A stretch of DNA of 32,000 bases from Corynebacterium glutamicum ATCC 13032 (GTDB taxonomy: Bacteria; Actinomycetota; Actinomycetes; Mycobacteriales; Mycobacteriaceae), in NCBI RefSeq assembly GCF_000011325.1, contig NC_003450.3, positions 2,790,001-2,822,000 on the forward strand, written 5' to 3'. Positions 4,332 to 17,366 of the stretch are shown piece after piece (positions within the stretch are counted from its first letter, which is position 1; each line of letters begins with the position of its first letter). The notes beneath the pieces were generated by a model, which ran no database searches, was not told where the DNA came from, and saw only the letters and a program-made list of their open reading frames with translations. Made by a program: the position numbers and the translations under genes.

Positions 4332-4816
4332 ACCGCGCACGAATCGCGACCATAGGCGTTCTTCCGCTTGCTTTACTGCTGGCGTCCTGTGGTTCAGACA
4401 CCGTGGAAATGACAGATTCCACCTGGTTGGTGACCAATATTTACACCGATCCAGATGAGTCGAATTCGATCAGTAATCTTGTCATTTCCCAGCCCAGCTT
4501 AGATTTTGGCAATTCTTCCCTGTCTGGTTTCACTGGCTGTGTGCCTTTTACGGGGCGTGCGGAATTCTTCCAAAATGGTGAGCAAAGCTCTGTTCTGGAT
4601 GCCGATTATGTGACCTTGTCTTCCCTGGATTTCGATAAACTTCCCGATGATTGCCAAGGACAAGAACTCAAAGTTCATAACGAGCTGGTTGATCTTCTGC
4701 CTGGTTCTTTTGAAATCTCCAGGACTTCTGGTTCAGAAATCTTGCTGACTAGCGATGTCGATGAACTCGATCGGCCAGCAATCCGCTTGGTGTCCTGGAT
4801 CGCGCCGACATCTTAA
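4328..4816 (+). CDS. Putative lipoprotein with META (HslJ-like) domain (162 aa)
   Basis: The ATG at 4328 overlaps the otsA TGA (ATGA). Signal peptide with lipobox LLASC. META-like features: TWLVTNIY, GFTGCVPFTGRAEF, and a second conserved Cys in DDCQGQE. The TTG at 4301 in the ORF track is probably not the start. Confidence 0.7.
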   Translation: MNRARIATIGVLPLALLLASCGSDTVEMTDSTWLVTNIYTDPDESNSISNLVISQPSLDFGNSSLSGFTGCVPFTGRAEFFQNGEQSSVLDADYVTLSSLDFDKLPDDCQGQELKVHNELVDLLPGSFEISRTSGSEILLTSDVDELDRPAIRLVSWIAPTS

Positions 4817-4870
4817 GGTGCCAGGGCTTTAAAGTGCCAGGGGTTCTGTGGGATCCGTACACTGGTTCCC

Positions 4871-5641
4871 ATGACTTTGACTATTGAGGAAATCGCCAAG
4901 ACCAAAAAGCTTTTGGTTGTGTCCGATTTTGATGGAACCATCGCAGGATTTAGCAAGGACGCTTACAACGTTCCTATCAACCAGAAATCCCTCAAGGCGG
5001 TAAAAGACCTCTCCCAACAAGCAGACACTGATGTTGTCATTTTGTCGGGACGTCACCTGGAGGGATTGAAGACGGTTCTTGATCTTGGTCAGTACGACAT
5101 CACCATGGTGGGTTCACACGGTTCTGAGGATTCCTCCCGCCCGCGTACCCTCACTCCTGAAGAGGTAGCTCGCCTCGCCAAGATTGAAGCAGATCTGGAA
5201 AAGATCGTCGACGGCATCGAAGGCGCATTCGTGGAGATCAAGCCTTTCCACCGCGTGCTGCACTTCATCCGTGTTTCCGACAAGGACAAAGTCCAAGGAA
5301 TCCTCGCCCAAGCAGCACACGTAGACTCTTCCGGCCTGAAGGTTACTAACGGCAAGAGCATCATCGAATACTCCATCAGCTCCACCACCAAGGGCACCTG
5401 GCTGAAGGAATACGTTGACCGCACCGAGCCCACTGGTGTGATTTTCCTCGGCGATGACACCACCGATGAGCACGGTTTCAAAGCTTTAGAAAACGATGAT
5501 CGTGCCCTAACCGTCAAGGTTGGCGAAGGAGACACTGCAGCCAAAACCCGCGTCGACGATGTTGATAATGTGGGAATTTTCCTAGAGAAACTCGCCTACC
5601 ACCGCATGCAGTATGCGGAAAGCGTGCGATTGGGGATTTAA
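4871..5641 (+). CDS. otsB: Trehalose-6-phosphate phosphatase OtsB (HAD superfamily, 256 aa)
   Basis: HAD motif I DFDGT near the N-terminus and a GDDTTDE motif near the C-terminus. Synteny with otsA. Confidence 0.9.
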   Translation: MTLTIEEIAKTKKLLVVSDFDGTIAGFSKDAYNVPINQKSLKAVKDLSQQADTDVVILSGRHLEGLKTVLDLGQYDITMVGSHGSEDSSRPRTLTPEEVARLAKIEADLEKIVDGIEGAFVEIKPFHRVLHFIRVSDKDKVQGILAQAAHVDSSGLKVTNGKSIIEYSISSTTKGTWLKEYVDRTEPTGVIFLGDDTTDEHGFKALENDDRALTVKVGEGDTAAKTRVDDVDNVGIFLEKLAYHRMQYAESVRLGI

Positions 5642-5673
5642 GAGAGCCTAAACGCACGAAAAGTGCCACAAGC

Positions 5674-6756
5674 CTAGATTGGCGCAACCGTGGAACCTGG
5701 GTGGAAGGAAGTTTCCAATTCCACTTCTGGTTCCACGTATTCTTTGTCAATCATTTTCAACAGTGTTTCGCCGGCTTTGAACCCTTTGAGTTTGTTGGGT
5801 TGGATGACGGTGGTGAGATCCCGTGCGAGTGCCATGTGGGTGCCATCGAAACCAGTGAGGGATAGATCTGCAGGCGCTGATTTACCTACGCTTTTAAGGT
5901 ATTCCAGAACGCCGAATGCCAGTGCATCGACGGTACAGAGTACTGCGGTGAGGTCTGGGTGTGTTTCTAGAAGTTCTTTGGCCACTTCGAAGTTGTGTTG
6001 GCGGTTGTTGATCCAGCATTCCATGATCGGCACGGTGCCGGGATCGATTCCCGCTTCGATAAAGACTTCCATGGCACCCCTGACTCGGTCGCGTTGTACC
6101 TGGTATTGGGCGTTTTCGAGGCGCTCGCGGGTGACTTCGCCGTCGTTGTTTGCGCGGTCTAGGCGGATGGACAGGATGCCGATTTTGCGGTGGCCGGCGT
6201 CGATTAGCGCTTGAGCTGCAGGGGCGATGGCTTTGCGGTTATTTGGGGCAATAAACGGCATGCCTTCTTCGCGTGCAGGCTGGTCGGCGATGACTGCGGG
6301 CAAACCACGGGCACGGATGGCATCGATGTGTGGATCACCCTTGGCAACGGAGTAAATAACCACTCCGTCAACTGCAGCGTTGTTGACTAATTGTTGAGCC
6401 GAGACATGGTCAACGCTGCTCGCGGGCGAGGCAGGAATCAGCGTTAGTTGGGTGTCTCCAGCAGCTTGAGCCACCCCGGCAAGAAAGTCCACGGAGGCCA
6501 TATCTTCGAAGGCATAAGTGAGGTCCTCAGTAAGCAGCACTCCGATTGCGCCTGCTCTGCGTGTACGAAGGCTGCGGGCCACCGGATCAGGGCCGAGATA
6601 GCCCATATCTTCAGCGGTGTCGAGGATGCGTTGGCGAAGTTCTGCGGAGAGTTGCTCCGGCCGGTTGTAGGCGTTGGACACTGTGGTCCTTGAGATACCT
6701 AGTTTCGCGGCGATGGACGCGAGGGTTCCGTATTGTTGTTTCCTACCCATAATCAT
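5674..6756 (-). CDS. ipsA: LacI-family transcriptional regulator (IpsA-like, 358-360 aa)
   Basis: N-terminal LacI HTH (TLASIAAKLGISRTTVSNAYN) plus a periplasmic-binding-protein-like effector domain. Its position next to otsB matches my recollection of the C. glutamicum ipsA locus. An alternative ATG lies at 6750. Confidence 0.8.
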   Translation of the reverse strand: MIMGRKQQYGTLASIAAKLGISRTTVSNAYNRPEQLSAELRQRILDTAEDMGYLGPDPVARSLRTRRAGAIGVLLTEDLTYAFEDMASVDFLAGVAQAAGDTQLTLIPASPASSVDHVSAQQLVNNAAVDGVVIYSVAKGDPHIDAIRARGLPAVIADQPAREEGMPFIAPNNRKAIAPAAQALIDAGHRKIGILSIRLDRANNDGEVTRERLENAQYQVQRDRVRGAMEVFIEAGIDPGTVPIMECWINNRQHNFEVAKELLETHPDLTAVLCTVDALAFGVLEYLKSVGKSAPADLSLTGFDGTHMALARDLTTVIQPNKLKGFKAGETLLKMIDKEYVEPEVELETSFHPGSTVAPI

Positions 6757-6829
6757 TTCAATCTACCAGTTACCCCTATGGCGTATCCGAGGTCTAACGC
6801 GATTTTGCGATTTTCAATAAGTTTTCATG

Positions 6830-6858
6830 TTGACATCCTTTTTCAATAAGCATTTAAT
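6830..6858 (+). promoter_or_regulatory. Candidate sigma-A promoter TTGACA-17 bp-TTTAAT for the zinc ABC operon; predicted start site falls at or next to the ATG at 6866 (leaderless)
   Basis: TTGACA at 6830-6835 and TTTAAT at 6853-6858, with the ATG 7-8 nt downstream of the -10 box. TTTTCA hexamers at 6811-6816, 6822-6827 and 6840-6845; the last lies in the spacer. Confidence 0.4.
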
Positions 6859-6865
6859 GGCAGGT

Positions 6866-7810
6866 ATGAAAAAGCTTCTTTGGACACTCCCCATCCTCCC
6901 ACTGGTACTAGCTGGCTGCTCAACTGGATCAGCAGATTCCGCGGATTCCACCAACGCTGCCGGATCCAATTCCCTTAAAGTGGTCACCTCCACCCAGGTG
7001 TGGGCTGACGTCGCCGAAGCTGTCGCCCCAGATGTAGACATTGAAGCAATTATTACCGGTGGCGACATCGACCCTCATTCCTTCGAGCCTTCCGCTACCG
7101 ATATGGCTAAAGTTTCCGAAGCTGACATCATTATCGTCGGTGGCGGCGGCTATGATTCCTGGCTCTACGGCACCTTGGAAGACGATGATCGCATCATCCA
7201 CGCATTGGATCTCTCAGAGCATGACCACAGCGAGCATGATGATCACGAGCACGAAGCCGAAGAAGCCCACGAACACGACCACGATGAAGAGGGCCACGAT
7301 CATGACGTCGACAACGAGCACGTCTGGTACTCCACTGAATACGTCTCTGAGGTAGCTGAAGAGTTCGCAGAAAAAGTCACCGAGCTTGATCCCGAGGCAC
7401 AGGCCGATGCAACGGCTGTGACCACCAAGATGGACGAGCTGCACAATCAGATTCACGATCTTCCAGCAGTTCGCATTGCTCAGACCGAGCCGATCGCCGA
7501 TCACATTTTGTCCCACTCCGACATGGTGGAATCCACCCCTGAGGGTTACCGCGCAACCACGTTGAGCGAGAGCGAGCCAACCGCAGCAGATGTTGCGTCG
7601 TTCCAGGATGCAATTAACAACGGTGACCTCGATGTTTTGATCTACAACCCACAGTCCGCGTCGACTGTCGCGACCAGCTTGAAGGATTTGGCAGAAGAAA
7701 AAGGCATCCCAGTTGTTGAGATCTATGAGACCCCTCAAAACACCGAGAATTTCCTCGATGCATTCACCAAGGCAGTTGATGATCTCACCGCTGCCACTAA
7801 CCAGGTTTAG
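6866..7810 (+). CDS. znuA: ABC-transporter metal-binding lipoprotein, ZnuA-like (zinc) with a His/Asp/Glu-rich loop
   Basis: MKKLLWTLPILPLVLAGC signal peptide with lipobox. The cluster-9 binding-protein fold is inferred from sequence. The His-rich loop SEHDHSEHDDHEHEAEEAHEHDHDEEGHDHDVDNEH (about 7217-7321) is typical of zinc-specific ZnuA. The upstream ATG at 6827 would bury the signal peptide. Confidence 0.85.
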   Translation: MKKLLWTLPILPLVLAGCSTGSADSADSTNAAGSNSLKVVTSTQVWADVAEAVAPDVDIEAIITGGDIDPHSFEPSATDMAKVSEADIIIVGGGGYDSWLYGTLEDDDRIIHALDLSEHDHSEHDDHEHEAEEAHEHDHDEEGHDHDVDNEHVWYSTEYVSEVAEEFAEKVTELDPEAQADATAVTTKMDELHNQIHDLPAVRIAQTEPIADHILSHSDMVESTPEGYRATTLSESEPTAADVASFQDAINNGDLDVLIYNPQSASTVATSLKDLAEEKGIPVVEIYETPQNTENFLDAFTKAVDDLTAATNQV

Positions 7811-7820
7811 AATTATTTAA

Positions 7821-8513
7821 ATGCTGTTGACTTTCAATGATGCTGCGGTGGATCCCCTCTGGAGGGGCCTGAATTTAGAGCTCCGACAGGGGGAATTTCT
7901 TGCGGTTTTAGGCCCCAACGGCGTGGGAAAATCCACGCTCATCGGTACGATTTTGGGCACCCGAAAACTCACCCACGGTTCGGTTAAAACTGATGCCCGG
8001 GTGGGTTATATTCCGCAACAACGAATTTTCGATGTCCCGTTGCGTGCCCGCGATATGGTTTCGCTGTCCGCGGCGCATGGCGTGGTTTCCAAAAGGGGAC
8101 CCGCGAAGGGTGACGTCGATAAGCTTCTTGCCCGCGTGGGCGCTTCCGGAATCGCCGATCGACGCGTCGGCGAGCTCTCCGGCGGGCAGCAGCAGCTCGT
8201 CCGCCAAGCCCAGGCCCTTGCCACGCGCCCGCAATTATTGCTTGCCGACGAACCCCTCCTCAGCCTTGACCCCGGCGTCGCGCAGCGCACGGTGTCCCTA
8301 TTTGGTGAATTGAAGGCCGAAGGCGTCGGCGTTGTTGTGGTCACCCACGATGTCAATCCACTAATGGGCCTGGTAGATCGCATTTTGTACCTCGCCCCCA
8401 ACGGCCACACCATCGGCACGGTTGGCGATGTCATGCAGTCCGAAAAACTCAGCGAACTCTACAACGCACCCGTCACGGTGGCTCGCATCAACGACAGAAT
8501 CGTGGTGGTTTAA
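7821..8513 (+). CDS. znuC: ABC-transporter ATP-binding protein (ZnuC-like, 230 aa)
   Basis: Walker A GPNGVGKST, signature LSGGQQQ, Walker B LLLADEP. Confidence 0.88.
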   Translation: MLLTFNDAAVDPLWRGLNLELRQGEFLAVLGPNGVGKSTLIGTILGTRKLTHGSVKTDARVGYIPQQRIFDVPLRARDMVSLSAAHGVVSKRGPAKGDVDKLLARVGASGIADRRVGELSGGQQQLVRQAQALATRPQLLLADEPLLSLDPGVAQRTVSLFGELKAEGVGVVVVTHDVNPLMGLVDRILYLAPNGHTIGTVGDVMQSEKLSELYNAPVTVARINDRIVVV

Positions 8514-9395
8514 GTGGATCTATCCACCTGGCTTTCCGACACCCAATATCTCATCAGCGTCGATTTCGTCCAGCACGCACTCATCGCCTCCGCGCTGTTG
8601 GGCCTGCTCTCCGGTGTGATCGCGCCGCTCATCGTGGTGCGCCAACAGTCCTTCGCAGTCCACGGCACCGCCGAACTCGCCCTCATGGGAGCCGCCGCCG
8701 CGCTGCTCTTCGGATTGAATGTAGGCGGCGGTGCAGTGATCGGTTCCGTGGTCGCCGCGATCCTACTGGCATTACTCGGCATGAAACAACAAGATTCCGC
8801 CGTCGGTGCCGTGATGAGTTTCGGACTCGGTCTGTCCGTGCTGTTCATTCACCTCTACCCCGGCCGAAGCTCCACCGCGTTCTCCCTGCTCACAGGGCAA
8901 ATCGTTGGTGTTTCCTCATCATCGCTGTGGATCCTTGTGGCAGTCACCGTGATCGTGGTTAGCGCCGTGGTGATTTTCTGGCGCCCGCTGCTTTTCGCCA
9001 GCGCCGATCCGATCATGGCGCAGGCCTCCGGAGTAAACGTCCGATTCATCGCCGTTGCCTTCGCAGTTCTGGTTGGCCTCACCACGTCCCAGTCCGTGCA
9101 GATTGTCGGTGCGCTGCTGGTCATGGCATTGCTGATCACTCCCGGCGCGGCCGCTGTGGCGGTGACCGCCAATCCAGTGAAAGCCGTGGTGCTGGCAGTC
9201 ATCTTCGCGGAAGTATCGGCTGTCGGTGGCCTGCTATTGTCGCTAGCGCCTGGTTTGCCGGTGAGTGTTTTTGTCACCACCATCTCTTTTGTGATTTACC
9301 TGGTCTGCCGCCTGATCGGTTGGCTCCGCGGCCGTGGAGCTCAGCGTGACGAAGATGCTTATCGACGCCGCCAGCACGATCACCACCCTCACTAG
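8514..9395 (+). CDS. znuB: ABC-transporter permease (ZnuB-like, ABC-3 family, 293 aa)
   Basis: GTG start immediately after the znuC stop. Highly hydrophobic multi-span protein. The His-rich C-terminal end is HDHHPH. Confidence 0.85.
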   Translation: MDLSTWLSDTQYLISVDFVQHALIASALLGLLSGVIAPLIVVRQQSFAVHGTAELALMGAAAALLFGLNVGGGAVIGSVVAAILLALLGMKQQDSAVGAVMSFGLGLSVLFIHLYPGRSSTAFSLLTGQIVGVSSSSLWILVAVTVIVVSAVVIFWRPLLFASADPIMAQASGVNVRFIAVAFAVLVGLTTSQSVQIVGALLVMALLITPGAAAVAVTANPVKAVVLAVIFAEVSAVGGLLLSLAPGLPVSVFVTTISFVIYLVCRLIGWLRGRGAQRDEDAYRRRQHDHHPH

Positions 9396-9430
9396 GCGTT
9401 TCGAAGTCCTATTTCAAGGGTCCACTTAAA

Positions 9431-9444
9431 AGGGGAAACCAGAC
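9431..9444. repeat. Left copy of the 14-bp target-site duplication AGGGGAAACCAGAC
   Basis: Identical 14-mer in direct orientation at 11163-11176, immediately outside the IS termini. Confidence 0.75.
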
Positions 9445-11162
9445 TGTTTTGTGTCAGAGGGTTGTGCACACTCAGTGTCATGACCTTATGCACACTTAAT
9501 GCCATGACCTTGTGCATGCATAGTGTCATGACCTTGTGCACACCCCAGACCTACACCACAGGCATAGTCCTAGGCTGCTCACAATTGACATCATGCCTAA
9601 ACCCCTACCCCCAGAAACCCGACGCAAGATCATCGATTTCGATCCGTTCGCACCGAACAGCCCCTCGATCGAAGAGTTCTGCAGTCGGCTAAAAATATCG
9701 CGGCGCAGCTTCTACAACATCCGCAACCGATACCAACAAGACGCCAACGCAGCACTGCATCCACACTCCAGCGCCCCAATCACCGCCCGGCGAACGTACG
9801 ATGAATCCATCACCAGCACCTTGCTGTCCATCCGCGCACGCCTGAAAGCCCAAGGATGGGAGTACGGCCCGATCTCTATTCGATTCGAAGGCATCTCCAC
9901 CGGGGAACTGACTGCACCGATTCCATCTGTTTCAACCATTGCTCGTTTGTTACGCGCCGCAGGAGCTGTTGAAAGTAACCCTAAGAAGCGACCGAAGTCG
10001 TCGGTGGTGAGGTTTCAACGAGGTCAAGCCATGGAAATGTGGCAAATAGATGGTTTCATCTACACACTGCACGATACTGATCTGACTCGGGTAACGATCT
10101 ATCAAATCCTTGATGATGCCACTCGGTTTGATGTCGGAACCTGTGTCTTCCCCGCGAATGAAAACTCAGTCGATGCCCGAACAGCGCTAGAACAAGCGAT
10201 TGCTCATTTCGGTGCCCCGCATGAATTACTCAGTGATAACGGCTCAGCGTTTAACCGGATGCGGCAAGGATACGTCGGAAGCTTGGAAAGCTATCTCGCG
10301 ACGGTGGGGTGTTTAAGCATTACCGGCAAGCCTGGGCATCCTCAAACCCAAGGTAAAAACGAACGCAGCCACCGCACACTATTTCGTTTCCTTCAAGCTC
10401 ATCAACCACACACACTTGAGGAATGTGCGCACTATATTGAACAGTTCCGCGATCATTACAACAATCGTCGCCCGCATCAGGGGTTGCCGAATAATCTCAC
10501 CCCGGCCGCGGCCTGGGAGATTGTGGGCTGTGTGGAACAACAACCCCCGATTGATCCCGTCGTGCTTCAACAGCAAGCCGATCACTATGCCCGTCGTCGA
10601 ATTGAGAAGCAATCAGATGTCCCGCTTGTTCGGCAGGAGGAATCTGTTCCGGTGTCTAAGATGCAGCAGACCGAGCAACGTCGACGGGTACGTCGTTTTG
10701 GTAAAAAGCCGGTGGATCCTGATGTGTTTACGTTTGCTGGGAATAATCAGAAGGTGGTGTTCCAGGGGATGCGTATTTCTGTTCCTCGTACGATGAGGGA
10801 CAGGGAGTTTTATCGGACGGTGACGGCAACTGAGCTTGGTTTCTGGGATGCGATAACCGGGGAGCTTGAGTTGTCGATTCCGTTGCCGGTTGTGGCGATT
10901 GCCCGGGGTAAGTCGTATATCAATTCTTACAACATTCGTGGGGTGTGGATGCAACACCCGACACCGTTGTGGCAACGCAAACGTGATGAGGCTGAGAAGC
11001 GATTCAAGTCGATAGATCCGGGGGATCTTCTGCGCTAGAAACTTGTCCCGAGGGGCTGGGTTGGTGTGCACACTGCTGTGGCTTTGTGTGTGCACAACCT
11101 AGTGGGATAGGGCGTGCACAAGGATATGACATTGGGTGTGCACAACGTGCTGACACTTTACA
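9445..11162 (+). mobile_element. Complete insertion sequence (1718 bp), single rve-type DDE transposase, IS481-like
   Basis: Termini are TGT...ACA. Imperfect inverted repeats of about 50 bp: IRL TGTTTTGTGTCAGAGGGTTGTGCACAC... versus reverse-complemented IRR TGTAAAGTGTCAGCACGTTGTGCACAC.... Each end carries about four copies of a GTGCAC(A)-containing subterminal repeat; at the left end, three roughly 22-bp units contain CATGACCTT(A/G)TGCA. Flanked by a 14-bp direct duplication. Confidence 0.85.
9536..11038 (+). CDS. DDE transposase (integrase core/rve domain), 481-500 aa
   Basis: Catalytic-region motifs WQIDGF, LSDNGSAF, HPQTQGKNERSHRTL. The longest ORF starts at GTG 9536, inside a terminal repeat; ATG 9593 (MPKPLPPETRRKI) is an equally plausible start. 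Confidence 0.85.
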   Translation: MHTPDLHHRHSPRLLTIDIMPKPLPPETRRKIIDFDPFAPNSPSIEEFCSRLKISRRSFYNIRNRYQQDANAALHPHSSAPITARRTYDESITSTLLSIRARLKAQGWEYGPISIRFEGISTGELTAPIPSVSTIARLLRAAGAVESNPKKRPKSSVVRFQRGQAMEMWQIDGFIYTLHDTDLTRVTIYQILDDATRFDVGTCVFPANENSVDARTALEQAIAHFGAPHELLSDNGSAFNRMRQGYVGSLESYLATVGCLSITGKPGHPQTQGKNERSHRTLFRFLQAHQPHTLEECAHYIEQFRDHYNNRRPHQGLPNNLTPAAAWEIVGCVEQQPPIDPVVLQQQADHYARRRIEKQSDVPLVRQEESVPVSKMQQTEQRRRVRRFGKKPVDPDVFTFAGNNQKVVFQGMRISVPRTMRDREFYRTVTATELGFWDAITGELELSIPLPVVAIARGKSYINSYNIRGVWMQHPTPLWQRKRDEAEKRFKSIDPGDLLR

Positions 11163-11176
11163 AGGGGAAACCAGAC
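11163..11176. repeat. Right copy of the 14-bp target-site duplication AGGGGAAACCAGAC
   Basis: See the left copy at 9431-9444. Confidence 0.75.
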
Positions 11177-11305
11177 AGGCGTGACAAAAATCTAGATTTC
11201 CGCCAGGTTTTGGCACGCCTGTCCGGTTTAGGGGATTGGAAACCGGACACACGTGACAGAACTTCGAGTTTTTCGCCAATCTTGTCACGCCTGTCTGGTT
11301 TGCCT
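11163..11305. repeat. MITE/REP-like palindromic element: four copies of a ~20-bp unit AAACC(A/G)GACAGGCGTGACAA arranged forward-reverse-forward-reverse
   Basis: Units at 11168-11187 (+), 11210-11229 (inverted), 11240-11258 (+) and 11282-11301 (inverted). The outermost pair is a perfect 20-bp inverted repeat. The loop of the first pair contains the perfect palindrome AAATCTAGATTT. Confidence 0.7.
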
Positions 11306-11555: not shown

Positions 11556-13247
11556 TTAGGAGTTAGCCAGTTCTTTGCCCGCGATGTATCCGAATGCCAG
11601 CGCTGGGCCAAGGTTGATGCCACCTGCTGGGTAGAAACCACCCATGATGGAGGCACGATCGTTGCCTGCGGTGTAGAGGCCATCGATGATCGTGTCGTCA
11701 TCGCGGAGAACTCGTGATTTTCCATCGGCTTTGATGCCATCGAAGGTGCCAAACGAACCCGGAACAACTTTCACAGCGTAGAACGGGCCCTTTTCGATTG
11801 GTGCGAGTGATGGGTTGGGGCCGATCTTGGGGTCGCCACCGTACTTGTTGAATGAAGTGGATCCGCGACCGAATTCTGGGTCTTCGCCCCGGCGCGCGTT
11901 TTCATTGAATTCCGTGACGGTGGCGCGCAAACCTGCAGGATCAATGCCACATTTTTGGGCTAGTTCCTCGATGGTTTTGCCCTTTACCAAGTATCCAGAA
12001 CGCAGGTATGGGGTGAGTGGTACGGGTAGTGGCTTGGCCATTCCCAGTGGGTATTTGCGCACGAAGGTGGAGTCGGCGATCTGCCAGGATGCAACTGGTT
12101 CGCCTTCGGGGGCTGCTTTCAGCATGGCGTCAACGTAGTCGTAGTAGCCGTTGGCTTCATTGACGAATCGCTTACCTGTGGAGACAACACCGATGGAGCC
12201 TGGTTTTGCGCGGTCCATGATGTGGGGGAAGGTGCCGACTTTTCCGTTGAAGTATGGGACCAATGAAACAGGGCACCATGCTGCTGGGGATTTCAGGTCG
12301 TTGACAAAACCTGCACCGATTTCCCGAGCCATGGATAGTCCGTCGCCGGTGGTTTCTGCTGGCGCGAGGGTCCAGTGTTCTTGACCTGATGGGGTGCGTG
12401 GGAAGAGTTCCTTGCGCAGGTCAACGTTGTTGGGGAATCCACCAGTGGCGAGCACGACGCCGGCAGTGGCTTCGAAATCTACCAAGCCCTGTGGGGTTTG
12501 TACTTTCACGCCGGTAACGCGGTCGTTTTTGTAATTCAACGACACTGCGGAGTGATTGACCAGGAGATCAACGCCCAGCTTGTCTGCAGAGGTAGCCAGT
12601 CGAGCGGTGAGTGCTGCACCGTTGACCATCTGCATATTGCGTTTGTGCACGACCATGTCCCACATGTGCACGATGACGCGCCTGGCGGCATGTACCCAAC
12701 CACGTGGATCGAACTGTGAAGCAGAGAGGAATTTCGTCAGGTCAGGCCCAGCCATGATGCCCATTCCCAGGAAGGAGGTTTCATACAGCTGGTGGCGCAG
12801 TTTTGGAAGAACACTCTTGGGTACTTTGCGTCCGTTGAATGGTTTTGGCCCAACGGAGCGGTGTCCAGTGCCAGCACCGGGGAGGTTGCCGTAGATGTCG
12901 TTGATTTTCGCGCCGGGGGTCCACTGCAGGTCGGTGTTTTTTTCAAAGAAATCGACCATTTCAGGGGCTGCGTCCAAGAAGGCGGAGATGTTGTCTTCTT
13001 GGTAGTACTCCCCCACTACCGCTTGCAGGTAGGTTTGGAATTCTTCTTTGGATTCCACTACTCCGTCTTTGCGCGCAAGGCTGGTTCCAGGAGTCCAAGC
13101 CCAACCGCCGGACCAGGTGGTGGCTCCACCGAGTACTGAGGCCTTTTCAATTACAGCGACTTTCTTACCGCCGTAAGCTGCACTGACTGCAGCTGATAAT
13201 CCGCCAGCGCCGGAACCGACAACGATGACATCATATTGGTGTTTCAT
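11556..13247 (-). CDS. FAD-dependent oxidoreductase (KstD / fumarate-reductase-flavoprotein-like, 563 aa)
   Basis: N-terminal dinucleotide-binding motif YDVIVVGSGAGGLSAA...EKA. Intact ORF. Its ATG directly abuts the stop of the upstream gene. Confidence 0.8.
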   Translation of the reverse strand: MKHQYDVIVVGSGAGGLSAAVSAAYGGKKVAVIEKASVLGGATTWSGGWAWTPGTSLARKDGVVESKEEFQTYLQAVVGEYYQEDNISAFLDAAPEMVDFFEKNTDLQWTPGAKINDIYGNLPGAGTGHRSVGPKPFNGRKVPKSVLPKLRHQLYETSFLGMGIMAGPDLTKFLSASQFDPRGWVHAARRVIVHMWDMVVHKRNMQMVNGAALTARLATSADKLGVDLLVNHSAVSLNYKNDRVTGVKVQTPQGLVDFEATAGVVLATGGFPNNVDLRKELFPRTPSGQEHWTLAPAETTGDGLSMAREIGAGFVNDLKSPAAWCPVSLVPYFNGKVGTFPHIMDRAKPGSIGVVSTGKRFVNEANGYYDYVDAMLKAAPEGEPVASWQIADSTFVRKYPLGMAKPLPVPLTPYLRSGYLVKGKTIEELAQKCGIDPAGLRATVTEFNENARRGEDPEFGRGSTSFNKYGGDPKIGPNPSLAPIEKGPFYAVKVVPGSFGTFDGIKADGKSRVLRDDDTIIDGLYTAGNDRASIMGGFYPAGGINLGPALAFGYIAGKELANS

Positions 13248-13997
13248 TTAGACTGCTTCCTCAATTTTTTCTAACAGAGCTTGGGTGGTGTTGTAGAGGT
13301 GGTTGATCCATCCGGCGTCGCCACGAGAGGCTACTTCCCCATCGTTGGGGGTCTCCACGCTGAGTGGGACGTTAGAATCCAGGGCGTTGACAAAGGTCAG
13401 GAGGTTTTGTTCACCTTCGCCGGGAGCCAGACGCAGGGAGCGGGATTCTGTAACCAGTCCGTCGAGGTCAGCCGGGCGTTGCAGAGGGCTATCGCAAAGC
13501 TGGAGAACTCCTAGAACATCGGTGACGTCGGTGAGTTCTTCTGGGGTGGCTCCGAACCTGGCCATGTGCAAGGTGTCCGCCACGACTTTTCCGCCGGAGT
13601 CTCTGGCGATTGCTGCTGCCTGCGGAATGGAATGCACGCTGCGGTAAGAGATTGGCTCTAGGGCTGGGGTGACTCCGAAATCACGGGCATCGTCAACCAT
13701 GGCACCGATCGTGTCGGTCAGGGGCGCAATGTTGTCATCACCGGCGGCGATGGTGAAGGTTTTAGCTCCCAGTGCTCCGGCGGCTTCTAGTGCGGGAAGC
13801 CAGGCCTCGCGGGTGGTGTCTGCGTTTACCTGTAGGAATTCAGTGTCGAGCACATACAGGGCGGTTTCTTTCAACGCTTGTTGGGTTGCAGCCAGCAGTG
13901 GGGATCCTGGGGAAAGGTCATATACACGTTCGTTGGGGGTTACTGCGATGACGCGCAGACCGACAAAGGAGAAACCAGTGGCAGCTGCGAGGCGCAC
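13248..13997 (-). CDS. Sugar-phosphate isomerase/epimerase-like TIM-barrel protein (AP_endonuc_2 / xylose-isomerase-like); N-terminus apparently lacks a canonical start codon
   Basis: The ORF track starts at GTG 13997, which has no SD. The reading frame stays open upstream and encodes a family-typical N-terminus (SRQIGLAPLSSLSTPPDQL). There an ACG at 14055-14057 sits 8 nt after GGAAG, where an ATG would be expected. Confidence 0.55.
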   Translation of the reverse strand: MRLAAATGFSFVGLRVIAVTPNERVYDLSPGSPLLAATQQALKETALYVLDTEFLQVNADTTREAWLPALEAAGALGAKTFTIAAGDDNIAPLTDTIGAMVDDARDFGVTPALEPISYRSVHSIPQAAAIARDSGGKVVADTLHMARFGATPEELTDVTDVLGVLQLCDSPLQRPADLDGLVTESRSLRLAPGEGEQNLLTFVNALDSNVPLSVETPNDGEVASRGDAGWINHLYNTTQALLEKIEEAV

Positions 13998-14071
13998 TAG
14001 TTGATCAGGTGGTGTGGACAGGGAGGATAAAGGTGCAAGACCGATTTGGCGTGACGTTTTAAAAGCTTCCG

Positions 14072-15111
14072 TTAGATCAAAGAGACCGGCTGGTGGGTGG
14101 CTGCTGATTCGTAGACACCAAGGAGAACTTTCAGAGCTCTGGTGGCATCGCGGCCGGTGATCAGTGGTGGGCGGCCTTCGTTGAGCGCATCGATAAAGTC
14201 TGCGATCTGGGCGGTGTGATACGGGATCAAAGCACCGTTGATGATGGAAAGATCGGCATTGGGATAAAGATCCGCGGGGTGGGATGGGGTGGTTTCGACG
14301 GTGTCGTTTTCACTGCGAACAATGAGCCTGCCGTCGGTACCTTCAGGGAATTCCAGGATCGTCATGGTGGCACCCTTTGTTCCCATCACCTGCACTTGTG
14401 CGCCGAGTGCTGGCTCTGCGGCGGTGGTGGCTGAAATTGTGGCCAACGCGCCCGATTCAAAACGCACAGTGGCAACGGCGCTGTCTTCGACTTCGATGTT
14501 GTCGCCGTGTTTGAAGGAGTTGGTGTAGCCGAAAACTTCCACGGGTTCGCCCAACAGCCAGTACAAAAGATCGATGTAGTGGATGGCTTGAGTCATGAGC
14601 ACTCCACCGCCATCGGCTGCCCAGGTTCCTCGCCATGGGGTTGCTGTGTAATAGGAATGCTCTCGGTAAAGCGCTACCGTGCATTGGCCCATGACGGCTC
14701 CTTTTTCATTTTTTGAGCCGCGGGCCAGAAGCGGCGCTGGAAGAGCACGCCAAGTTGGACCCCTGCGGACTCGCAGGCATCGATCATGCGCTGTGCGGAA
14801 TCGAGTTCGATGGCGATTGGCTTCTCACAAAGCACGTGCACTCCGGCGGCAGCAGCGGCGAGGACCACTGTTTCGTGGGTTGGATGTGGGGTGCAGACTG
14901 CGACAATGTCCACCCCGGAGGCGAGGATCTCATCGACAGACGTGAAACTGGGAGAAATTCCATATTTCGCTGCGGTTTCCGATGCTTTCGCACCATCCAC
15001 ATCACAGACTGCGCTGACTTCTGCGCCGGGGATTGCCTGAACTGCTTCGATATGGTTTCGGCTGATTGCACCGCAACCGATGATGCCGACTTTCCAGATC
15101 TTGTCAGACAT
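14072..15111 (-). pseudogene. Gfo/Idh/MocA-family oxidoreductase split by a frameshift into a 145-aa Rossmann part and a 206-aa C-terminal part
   Basis: The N-terminal ORF (14674-15111) has KVGIIGCGAISRNH. The C-terminal ORF (14072-14692) has the family C-domain (WRGTWAADGGGVLMTQAIHYIDLL). The two frames overlap at 14674-14692, next to homopolymer runs at 14702-14706 and 14709-14714. Confidence 0.75.
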
Positions 15112-16460
15112 TATTTCTTCCCTAGATCTTCAAGCTTGGTGAAGGCGGTTTCCTTGGTGGTCAAAATAACTGCGGCAGACAGTGCGATTGCGCCGATGAT
15201 GAATCCCGCAACAGCTTCCCAACCGTTCCATGCGTACAGGGCGGTGGCGATGGTTGGTGCGAAACCAACGATGATCAGACCGAGCTGGTTGCCCATAGCC
15301 ATGCCGGTGTAGCGCACGGAAGATGCGAACATTTCTGGGAAGAAAATGGTCCACACGCCGTTCCAGCAGGAGTAGAACAAACCTTGGTTGACCAAGCACA
15401 GTGCGAAGATCAGCACAAGGTCAGCTTCAGAGATTGCCTGGAAGTAGAAGTAGGTGGTGATTGCACAGGTGATGGCCCCGAACAGCAAGACTGGCTTGCG
15501 GCCAATGCGGTCAGAGACCCACGCGGCCAAAGGAATCGTTCCGATGGAAAGCCCCAGCGCGATGGTGTTCACCATCACCATGAAGGAACGATCGATGCCG
15601 ATTTCGTTGGCGGCGTATGCCAGTGCGTAAACGTTGAAAGTGGTCTGAACAACGGCGAAGAAGGTGATCAGGAAAACTCGTGCGACATCAATGCCCTGGG
15701 TGCGCAGCACAGCCAAAGCCGGAGCGCCTGCGTCCTCTTCGGCCTTCTCAGTTGATGCTTCCTCCAGTCGGGTGCGCACGAAGTATGCGACAACTAAAAC
15801 CAGTGCGGAAAGCAGGAAAGGTACGCGCCAGCCCCATGACATGAGGTGTTCTTCCGGCAGCATCAAGAACGGGATAAATACCAAGCCAGCCAGGACGTTT
15901 CCAACTGAGCAACCCGCCATCACCGATGAGGTGAAGAATCCACGCTTGCCTTCAGGAGAATGTTCCATGGTCAGTGTGGATGCACCTGCAGCTTCTGCGA
16001 CTGCAGAGAATCCCTATGCGATGCGGGCGATCATCAACAGCACGGTCGCCCAAATGCCGATCTGTCCGTAGGTGGGCAGAAGTCCGATGGAAATGGAGGC
16101 GATACCCATGATCATCAACGTCACCATGAGGGCGGTTTTGCGACTGATCTTATCGCCAACATGTCCCATCACCAGACCACCGATGGGGCGCGCAATGTAC
16201 GCAACACCGAATGAGGCGAGAGAGCCGATCGTCGCGACGACTGGGTCGCCCTGTGGGAAGAAGAGGTGATTGAACAGCAGCGCGGAGGCGGTGCCGTAAA
16301 TGACAAAGTCGTAGTACTCCAGAGTCGAACCCAAAAGTGACGCCAAGGCGGCTTTCTTTGGGGACTTTGCTGGGCTTTCTGCCTCACGCAGCTTCAAAGA
16401 TGCAGTTTCAGGAGCGGCGGTTGCGGTCCTCACGGTTTCCATGTGATCACCCTTTCTCAT
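15111..16460 (-). pseudogene. MFS transporter (metabolite:H+ symporter type) interrupted by an in-frame TAG
   Basis: ORFs 16014-16460 and 15111-15968 are in the same frame. Reading through gives IARIA-TAG-GFSAVAEAAGASTLTMEHSPEGKRGF. The TAG (16014-16016) sits where the family normally has Gln (CAG). LEYYDFVIYG is an MHS-type motif. The likely start is ATG 16442, preceded by GAAAGGG. Confidence 0.75.
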
Positions 16461-16596
16461 TAAGAATCATGAACTTAATCACGTTTAATGTTCTTTAGAA
16501 TAGGTGTCACAAACACACAACCAAGTTCTTCCCATTCAATGGGAAGAGGTGGGTGTAGGGGCATTCACGCCAAATGGGCGCGTTCGAAATGCGAAC

Positions 16597-17366
16597 TTAA
16601 TATAGAGAGTCTTTTTGTAGCCTTACGCTGAGCTTTTGGCATGCATCAAGCACCACAGAAACCGCCTGATTCACATCAATTTCATCGTTCCTCGCCACTA
16701 CCCCCACTGATGCCCGAACAACCCCTTTTCGATCAAAAACCGGAGCCGCAACCGCCGTATTCTCCGGAATCAGACCACCCACAAATACAAAATGCCCCGT
16801 CGCGCGAATTTCCGGGAGCATCGCAGCTACAGCAGCACCATCCGTAATATCCCCCGAAATGGAATCCTTAAACGGCGAACTCGTCACTGCCTTAATGGTT
16901 TGCGGCGAAGCAAACGCCAACATCACCAACCCCAATGATGTGGTGTGCAAATCCAAACGCCCCGCATGCCTGCCCAAAAGACGCAGCTGACTATCCGTCG
17001 AATCGAAACGCTCCACATACAAAATCGTACGATCCACAAAATCCGGCACCGCCAAACACACGTATTGCCCCAGCTCTTCACGCACATCACTCAAGATGGT
17101 CTGAGCTTGCAGCCTCATGCGCTCCAAAGGATTCGCCCTCACAAACGTCTCCCACGCATGCGTGCCGATGCCATATTTGCCGTCAGAAAAGCGCTCCAGC
17201 AACTTCACCGACGTCAATTCCACGACCAAACGGTGCGCCGTCGAGCTAGGCAAACCACTGCGACGCGCGATTTCCGAGGCCCCAACCTCGCGTTTTCTGC
17301 ATCAAAGCAGTGCAACACCCGCATGGTGCGTTGCAACACCGTTTCCCCCGATGAAGAATTAGCCAT
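16597..17366 (-). pseudogene. IclR-family transcriptional regulator with a frameshift inside the N-terminal HTH region
   Basis: ATG 17366 opens a 50-codon frame (MANSSSGETVLQRTMRVLHCFDAEN...) that then runs out of frame. The HTH continuation GASEIARRSGLPSSTAHRLVVEL and the whole effector domain are in the frame of ORF 16597-17253. One extra A in the A4 run (17293-17296) would join them into about 256 aa. Confidence 0.75.

Follow-up and report, generated by a model that had tools for sequence, protein, structure and literature searches.

The window, a 32,000-nucleotide stretch of the Corynebacterium glutamicum ATCC 13032 chromosome (NC_003450.3, positions 2,790,001 to 2,822,000), carries five consecutive genes on the minus strand between positions 11556 and 17366. 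They encode, in order, an IclR-family regulator, a major facilitator superfamily (MFS) transporter, a Gfo/Idh/MocA oxidoreductase, a TIM-barrel protein, and a flavin adenine dinucleotide (FAD)-dependent oxidoreductase. Four of the five are inactivated, each by a different type of lesion. We conclude, with a probability of about 0.85, that the locus is an accessory catabolic operon undergoing neutral decay specifically in the ATCC 13032 lineage. In this account the pathway would no longer have been needed in that lineage, selection on it would have been relaxed over essentially the whole lineage-specific branch, and four independent inactivating mutations, along with at least five probably damaging missense changes, accumulated.

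The gene order that the earlier note had read from the minus strand is borne out by an open reading frame (ORF) listing and by Pfam, and its layout of a regulator plus one operon is supported. The junctions are as tight as had been described; base 15111 is common to the MFS stop codon and the oxidoreductase start codon (TAATG), and the stop codon of the TIM-barrel gene abuts the start of the FAD gene (TAA-ATG, 13248/13247). The window is 100% identical to CP020658 across 10.9 kb. The features of the cluster are as follows.

16597 to 17366, minus strand: IclR-family regulator pseudogene, cg2922 (ORF listing and Pfam scan)
16443 to 16596, minus strand: IclR-MFS intergenic/promoter region (alignment of strains)
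15111 to 16442, minus strand: MFS transporter pseudogene, cg2921 and cg2920 (ORF listing and Pfam scan)
14072 to 15111, minus strand: Gfo/Idh/MocA oxidoreductase pseudogene, cg2919 and cg2918 (ORF listing and Pfam scan)
13248 to 14057, minus strand: xylose-isomerase-like TIM-barrel gene (AP_endonuc_2), cg2917, start codon lost (PF01261)
11556 to 13247, minus strand: intact FAD-dependent oxidoreductase gene (FAD_binding_2), cg2916, KstD/ChcC2-like, 563 aa (Pfam and NCBIfam)

The lesions were defined by base-level alignment of the window with the intact alleles of other C. glutamicum strains. The alignment confirmed the four lesions that had been proposed, each of a different type and all within the intervals flagged in the earlier note. 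In the IclR gene, a run of five G residues is shortened to four at 17283-17280, a 1-bp deletion relative to seven intact strains that shifts the frame about 28 codons into the gene, inside the helix-turn-helix (HTH) region. The remnant is a 218-aa ORF (16597-17253) in which Pfam finds the IclR_C domain (PF01614) only, and the 52-aa N-terminal ORF has no Pfam match; the intact allele encodes PF09339 and PF01614 on a 256-aa protein, a two-domain architecture that the window copy lacks. The MFS gene has a C>T change at 16016 that converts codon 16016-16014 from CAG to TAG (Q143*), leaving ORFs of 148/142 aa and 285 aa in place of the 443-aa product of the intact allele. A 25-bp deletion (CTTGTCGACGGCTCCCTTGGCCAAC), with its junction between 14698 and 14697, removed conserved codons of the oxidoreductase gene and split it into a 145-aa N-terminal ORF with PF01408 and a 206-aa C-terminal ORF with PF02894; the intact allele carries both domains on a single 354-aa protein, and the window copy does not encode them on one polypeptide.

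The lesion of the TIM-barrel gene is a T>C change at 14056 that turns the start codon ATG into ACG. The frame is still open, and the gene has been annotated from downstream GTG (13997) or CTG starts; the longest ORF begins at the GTG at 13997, and RefSeq lists a 257-aa product from an alternative start. The protein encoded in the window matches PF01261 at 50.9 bits, above the 31.1-bit cut-off. The 12-20 N-terminal residues that would be lost include the nearly invariant G6, A8, L10, S11, and P17. The FAD gene was described in the earlier note as the sole intact member, and this also holds; CP007722 and CP007724, in which the cluster is intact, encode exactly the same protein. The spacer between the IclR and MFS genes has also changed at two places in the 13032 lineage only, by a T>C substitution at 16569 and by the loss of one base from a C run near 16561. 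Within this spacer are a conserved hairpin or palindrome with 9-bp arms (16547-16527) and, upstream of the MFS start, an imperfect palindrome rich in AT, either of which may be a putative operator or terminator. A scan of the locus for consensus promoters and terminators gave matches no more frequent than chance.

Exact-protein look-ups identified the intact five-gene cassette in the corresponding chromosomal position, flanked by rlmB and a znu-like ATP-binding cassette (ABC) operon, in 11 loci from other sampled C. glutamicum strains (the records include CP007724, CP007722, AP009044, CP022614, CP121344, CP012194, APJJ01, CP041729, LHDK01, and AQPS01). The products of these loci measure 256, 437-445, 354, 269, and 563-566 aa, respectively, and the lengths of the flanking gene products are equal in all strains examined. 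The cassettes have the site and the five genes in common with the window but differ by their full-length genes, by purifying selection, and by having no adjacent insertion sequence (IS). Seven close records (AP009044, CP022614, CP012194, CP121344, CP041729, CP007722, and CP007724) show 97.6-99% DNA identity to the window; two of them, CP007722 and CP007724, encode the identical FAD protein together with full-length upstream genes (256, 443, 354, and 269 aa) and have no IS. Because the seven close intact strains and the divergent LHDK01 allele agree with each other at all four lesion sites, the state of the window is the derived one. The locus had been put forward as a case for resurrecting a pathway, an exercise that is needless given the intact alleles present in other strains.

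Two of the records, from one C. glutamicum lineage, stand apart. LHDK01000002 and AQPS01000020 (locus at ~4750-10590) carry the same cassette in intact form with ~16% DNA divergence and a pS of ~0.5, and their flanks differ by ~1-6%; the cassette proteins are nonetheless closest to the C. glutamicum alleles (84-94%). This pattern suggests either cassette-wise replacement or an old polymorphism. A contig scan with the FAD protein, for which exact 8-mer peptide matches were needed, returned no C. glutamicum record, and its best match (76%) was from C. kalidii; given that requirement, the scan is no firm guide to close sister species.

Selection on the cluster was assessed from the ratio of nonsynonymous to synonymous change (pN/pS). 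Among the intact strains this ratio is 0.07-0.20 for the five genes, from which it follows that an intact cassette is a functional one. For the branch leading to ATCC 13032, a change was counted as specific if the seven other close strains were all in agreement at the site. The MFS, oxidoreductase, and TIM-barrel genes acquired 19 substitutions on this branch, 13 nonsynonymous (including two of the lesions) and 6 synonymous, compared with 5 nonsynonymous and 35 synonymous in the flanking ptsS, cysS, and rlmB genes on the same branch (Fisher's exact test, p = 3e-5, or 1.5e-4 without the two lesions). The branch pN/pS of the cluster is ~0.6-0.7 by a Nei-Gojobori-style estimate. By our own arithmetic, 13032-specific substitutions occur at ~7.6 per kb in 16016-13525 versus ~2.2 per kb in cysS/rlmB, an approximately threefold excess that is roughly what is expected for neutral versus constrained sequence. 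The contrast between 13:6 and 5:35, together with the low pN/pS of the intact strains, supports the view of the earlier note that selection was relaxed in this lineage and that the damage was not a single accident.

Several of the missense changes are likely to be damaging in their own right. Residue conservation was judged over 38-73 orthologues from other genomes, and the 13032-specific changes G148V (38/38 G), P230S, and T278A in the MFS protein all affect nearly invariant positions, as do G66A (72/73) and R112P (70/73) in the TIM-barrel protein. Fixing only the four lesions would leave these changes in place and probably would not restore function. The IclR gene has no lineage-specific substitution besides its deletion, and the FAD gene has none.

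The intact state of the FAD gene may be accounted for by the mosaic structure of the region. In comparison to CP007722 and CP007724, the window shows no differences from ~13500 down to ~7000, apart from the IS and a few adjacent indels, and ~1% divergence from 13525 upward, which places a boundary within the TIM-barrel gene.

13500 to 13525, no strand: apparent recombination breakpoint within the TIM-barrel gene (alignment with CP007722 and CP007724)

The identical tract takes in the FAD gene and the znu-like ABC operon and extends into a LacI-type regulator gene, and tracts of ~1% divergence lie on both sides of it; this alternation is a clear indication of mosaic recombination among strains. 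Because CP007722 and CP007724, whose clusters are intact, share this tract with the window, the integrity of the FAD gene is not evidence of retained function, and we infer that shared recombination history or a short elapsed time, not selection, best explains it. Another tract was observed in ptsS, a sucrose phosphotransferase system gene (window 21260-20550), with 33 ATCC 13032-specific substitutions in ~750 bp, 29 of them synonymous, in a background that is otherwise ~99% identical. The pattern resembles a segment acquired by recombination from a diverged donor.

Several points weigh against neutral decay in the ATCC 13032 lineage. Laboratory derivatives of ATCC 13032 make up the bulk of the sample. 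The order of the lesions and their strict independence in time are not fixed, in that strains with only one to three lesions were sought among C. glutamicum contigs and none was found. Two 249-aa TIM-barrel proteins (P0022 and P0025) were considered as intermediates and rejected as merely downstream-start annotations of intact-type alleles; the genome that matches them, CP041729, is fully intact. In a published RNA-seq study of long-term adaptation to high lysine, cg2919 is reported to rank in the top ten genes for up-regulation and to have been over-expressed as a candidate tolerance gene (PMC9395588), and the locus is therefore still transcribed and regulated. By the present analysis, the cg2919 of that work is half of the broken oxidoreductase gene. 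Finally, the decay is visible only in a 2.5-kb core, and this pattern could reflect a decayed segment that was recombined in from an unsampled lineage.

The last point leads to a variant of the neutral decay explanation, in which the MFS-oxidoreductase-TIM segment was already dead when it was imported by homologous recombination from an unsampled lineage; the genes would be pseudogenes in this case as well. The strongly mosaic nature of the locus with its breakpoint inside the TIM-barrel gene, the clear import nearby in ptsS, and the confinement of all lineage-specific substitutions of the cluster to 16016-13525 are consistent with such an event. Against it, the core includes neither the IclR frameshift nor the two changes in the promoter region. 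Moreover, the divergence of the core (~0.76%) is similar to the synonymous divergence estimated for neighbouring genes on the same branch, and thus no import is required. We regard this variant as possible, with the odds clearly on the side of decay in place.

A second alternative is adaptive loss, whereby a first lesion such as the regulator frameshift de-represses a costly or harmful transporter or pathway and structural knock-outs are then favoured. The regulator is indeed inactivated while the locus is still transcribed (PMC9395588), and four successive knock-outs exceed the number needed to kill a pathway. However, the branch pN/pS shows no excess over neutrality, neutral decay of the remaining genes is expected once one gene has died, and the IclR protein of the cassette may be either a repressor or an activator. 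Adaptive loss is an unlikely explanation of the locus.

Far less probable still is that the split genes function as two-piece proteins or by way of programmed frameshifting, stop-codon read-through, or alternative starts. The open frame of the TIM-barrel gene with its RefSeq product, and the complete Pfam domain in each oxidoreductase half, could be taken in favour of this idea. The splits are limited to one lineage, however, and single full-length genes are present in every other strain and species examined, such that related genomes contain intact genes and no conserved half-proteins. The loss of conserved codons through the 25-bp deletion, the loss of nearly invariant residues from the TIM-barrel N terminus, and the relaxed selection also argue against it.

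The broken ORFs occur on ~140-225 independent contigs, including separately deposited genomes (BAC00031/BAC00032, CAF21299/CAF21300, and MB001) and assemblies of separate sequencing runs, and the MFS nonsense codon is accompanied by the other three lesions in every examined contig that reaches far enough. An origin in faulty sequencing or assembly, or in the mutagenesis or domestication of a single laboratory stock, is effectively refuted; the 1-bp homopolymer change and the single-base changes are typical error types, but a 25-bp deletion is not, and the lesions come together with another 19 substitutions of mixed types that are specific to the lineage, more than decades of laboratory culture would produce. 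Of the two outcomes that the earlier note named as refuting its reading, assembly errors and conserved half-proteins in relatives, neither was borne out.

With neutral decay in the ATCC 13032 lineage as the preferred explanation, the nearby IS element can be considered. The earlier note had remarked on an IS insertion beside the damaged genes. The element is real, but it disrupts no gene and is not a cause of the damage.

9445 to 11157, plus strand: IS element, outside the operon (500-aa rve/HTH transposase at 9536-11038)

The insertion is located in the spacer where the FAD gene and an ABC permease gene converge, and the element is missing from the loci of the intact-cassette strains examined. 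On either side of it is a near-identical direct repeat of 19 bp (9426-9444 and 11158-11176) that is present as a single copy at empty sites and is unusually long for a target duplication. The terminal inverted repeats are imperfect and ~94 nt in length, with three copies of a GTGCACA-containing motif spaced by 24 nt at each end. The closest family for the transposase is IS481 (NF033577, 198 bits versus a 224-bit cut-off). CP080542 has all four lesions and no IS; the IS is therefore not causal, a conclusion that its position shows directly, and judging from this same record it was probably inserted later than the lesions unless it was engineered out of CP080542.

Other features of the adjoining spacers were noted. 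The spacer 3' of the FAD gene (11169-11300) contains a pair of ~61-nt inverted or duplicated palindromic units with a direct-repeat spacing of 72 nt. One palindromic unit is apparently missing as well from CP080542 (our locus L088), which also has 5 mismatches at the 3' end of the FAD gene. At ~9421, in the 3' spacer of the ABC permease gene and just outside the left IS flank, there is a 13032-specific 4-6 bp deletion (GGGTTCGTGTCCAC to GGGTCCAC).

The possible function of the intact cassette was examined through family assignments. The best NCBIfam matches of the intact MFS allele are TIGR00883 (metabolite/H+ symporter; 353 versus 443 bits) and NF007414 (ShiA; 292 versus 538 bits), both below cut-off. 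For the IclR regulator the best match is PcaR/PcaU/PobR, at 72 bits versus a cut-off of 285. The Gfo/Idh/MocA dehydrogenase is closest to IolG (168 versus 355 bits) and by that model is not an inositol 2-dehydrogenase. The TIM-barrel protein has no match in NCBIfam, and a single-sequence search of the PDB gave one structural-genomics match only. A profile built from its orthologues matched 2g0w (Lmo2234; 1e-17), 5hmq (a TIM-barrel/HPPD fusion that we take to be the dehydroshikimate dehydratase QuiC1; 8e-6), and 1i60 (IolI; 1e-4).

The FAD protein matches PF00890 (E = 1e-101) and passes the cut-off of NF009476, an uncharacterised 'FAD-dependent oxidoreductase' model (1127 versus 940 bits). Its match to the ChcC2 model (4-oxocyclohex-2-ene-1-carboxylate dehydrogenase; E = 1e-145, 486 bits versus a cut-off of 900) is better than those to the two KstD equivalogs (449 versus 789 bits and 422 versus 788 bits), which are likewise below their cut-offs. 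The best PDB matches are to KstD structures (7p18 and 4c3x, E = 8e-86 over the full length). Three of four KstD1 positions whose catalytic roles we presume from structural work are kept, with Tyr318, Tyr487, and Gly491 corresponding to Y368, Y539, and G543. Unlike KstD, the protein has Ile118 at the position of Tyr119, and its cluster encodes a transporter of organic-acid type.

The order IclR-MFS-Gfo-TIM-FAD is kept in C. glyciniphilum, C. halotolerans, and other corynebacteria, and the same order is found in many Micrococcaceae, including Arthrobacter, Paenarthrobacter, Sinomonas, and Citricoccus genomes. Two annotated Micrococcaceae loci have a gene for an OYE/FadH-like Fe-S flavoenzyme (BaiCD-like, ~680 aa) between the oxidoreductase and TIM-barrel genes. 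The Arthrobacter oryzae locus (L013; 6145-9862) also has a DkgA-like aldo-keto reductase between the TIM-barrel and FAD genes, and in the Paenarthrobacter aurescens locus (L017; 6651-9968) the flavoenzyme and the TIM barrel are on one 1105-aa ORF, apparently as a fusion.

These assignments were compared with known pathways. In the chc pathway of Sinomonas cyclohexanicum, as summarized in PMC9795900 from Yamamoto et al. 2021, a ring hydroxyl is oxidised to a ketone and two KstD-like desaturases then aromatise the product to 4-hydroxybenzoate. The present cassette resembles that system in the match of its FAD protein to the ChcC2 model and in being common in the Micrococcaceae, the family of Sinomonas, but differs in having a single desaturase and no P450 hydroxylase. 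We know of no counterpart of its Gfo/Idh/MocA dehydrogenase and TIM-barrel enzyme in the chc cluster. Resemblances to the iol and qsu/qui clusters are seen in the IolG-like dehydrogenase, in a transporter closest to ShiA, and in a TIM-barrel profile that weakly matches IolI and 5hmq; in contrast to those clusters, no IolB/C/D/E-like or QsuC/D-like gene was found in three annotated orthologous flanks (L002, L013, and L017). To our knowledge, neither the iol pathway nor the quinate/shikimate pathways include a KstD-like flavoprotein.

The earlier note had suggested sugar, polyol, or inositol-like catabolism. This guess is only partly supported; the resemblances of the transporter, regulator, and flavoprotein instead favour a hydroaromatic or alicyclic acid, which would be more likely as a substrate class than a sugar, polyol, or inositol. 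A pathway for inositol or sugar was rejected, as the IolG-like dehydrogenase is below cut-off and the TIM barrel is only distantly related to IolI; no other iol-like genes were found in the window cluster or in the same three orthologous flanks. A steroid pathway was rejected on the basis of the KstD scores, the organic-acid type transporter, and the lack of other steroid-catabolism genes nearby.

Tentatively, the cassette may convert a hydroaromatic or alicyclic acid to a hydroxybenzoate by oxidation, dehydration, and desaturation. At low confidence throughout, the intact transporter would import an acid of the hydroxylated cyclohexane- or cyclohexene-carboxylate (hydroaromatic) type, the dehydrogenase would then oxidise a ring hydroxyl to a ketone, the TIM-barrel enzyme would dehydrate or isomerise the cyclic ketone, the flavoprotein would introduce a double bond alpha,beta to the ketone to yield a hydroxybenzoate, and this product would enter the beta-ketoadipate pathway. 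Counting against the scheme, every specific equivalog (IolG, ShiA, KstD, and ChcC2) scores below cut-off, and the assignments amount to family resemblance. It is thus doubtful, though conceivable, that the cassette represents an undescribed route from a hydroaromatic acid to a hydroxybenzoate by way of a Gfo-type dehydrogenase, a TIM-barrel enzyme, and a ChcC2/KstD-like desaturase.

Accessory operons that have decayed in a single strain are well known, and the present locus, although a clean case of neutral decay in a species that recombines, is an ordinary one. Decayed genes are familiar from laboratory type strains, as in the ilvG frameshift of Escherichia coli K-12 and the sfp/swrA frameshifts of Bacillus subtilis 168. 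As in those cases, accessory genes that wild relatives keep intact are inactivated by point lesions in a widely used reference strain. The cluster differs from them in that four consecutive genes are affected, a signature of relaxed selection is measurable, and the decay is old and natural and not one domestication event.

The fragments themselves are already public as coding sequences (CDSs) in the annotations of the most-studied C. glutamicum strain. In the public annotation of the ATCC 13032 derivative MB001 the genes are cgp_2916 to cgp_2922 and are deposited as ordinary CDSs under the names 'putative 3-oxosteroid 1-dehydrogenase', 'putative oxidoreductase' (twice), 'putative shikimate permease', 'putative metabolite permease', and 'IclR-family regulator'. 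A literature search for cg2916-cg2922 and for the domain combination found no paper treating the cluster. One paper names 'Cg2917' as a lactate permease, a mismatch with the TIM-barrel gene that is probably a slip. What is new here is the definition of the lesions at the level of single bases, the test of selection on the same branch, the account of the intact FAD gene by recombination, and the recognition that C. glutamicum commonly carries intact alleles.

Work with C. glutamicum as a chassis takes ATCC 13032 as its reference, together with derivatives such as MB001 and production strains. The seven annotated CDSs (cg2917-cg2922) are, as judged from their sequences, probably fragments of four dead genes and are best treated as pseudogenes in metabolic models, transcriptomes, and regulon lists. 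If the proposed hydroaromatic-acid route is correct, ATCC 13032 would be a natural null mutant for it. Strains R or ATCC 14067, which have the complete cassette, would in comparison to ATCC 13032 provide a ready-made test of the substrate for this widely conserved actinobacterial cluster.

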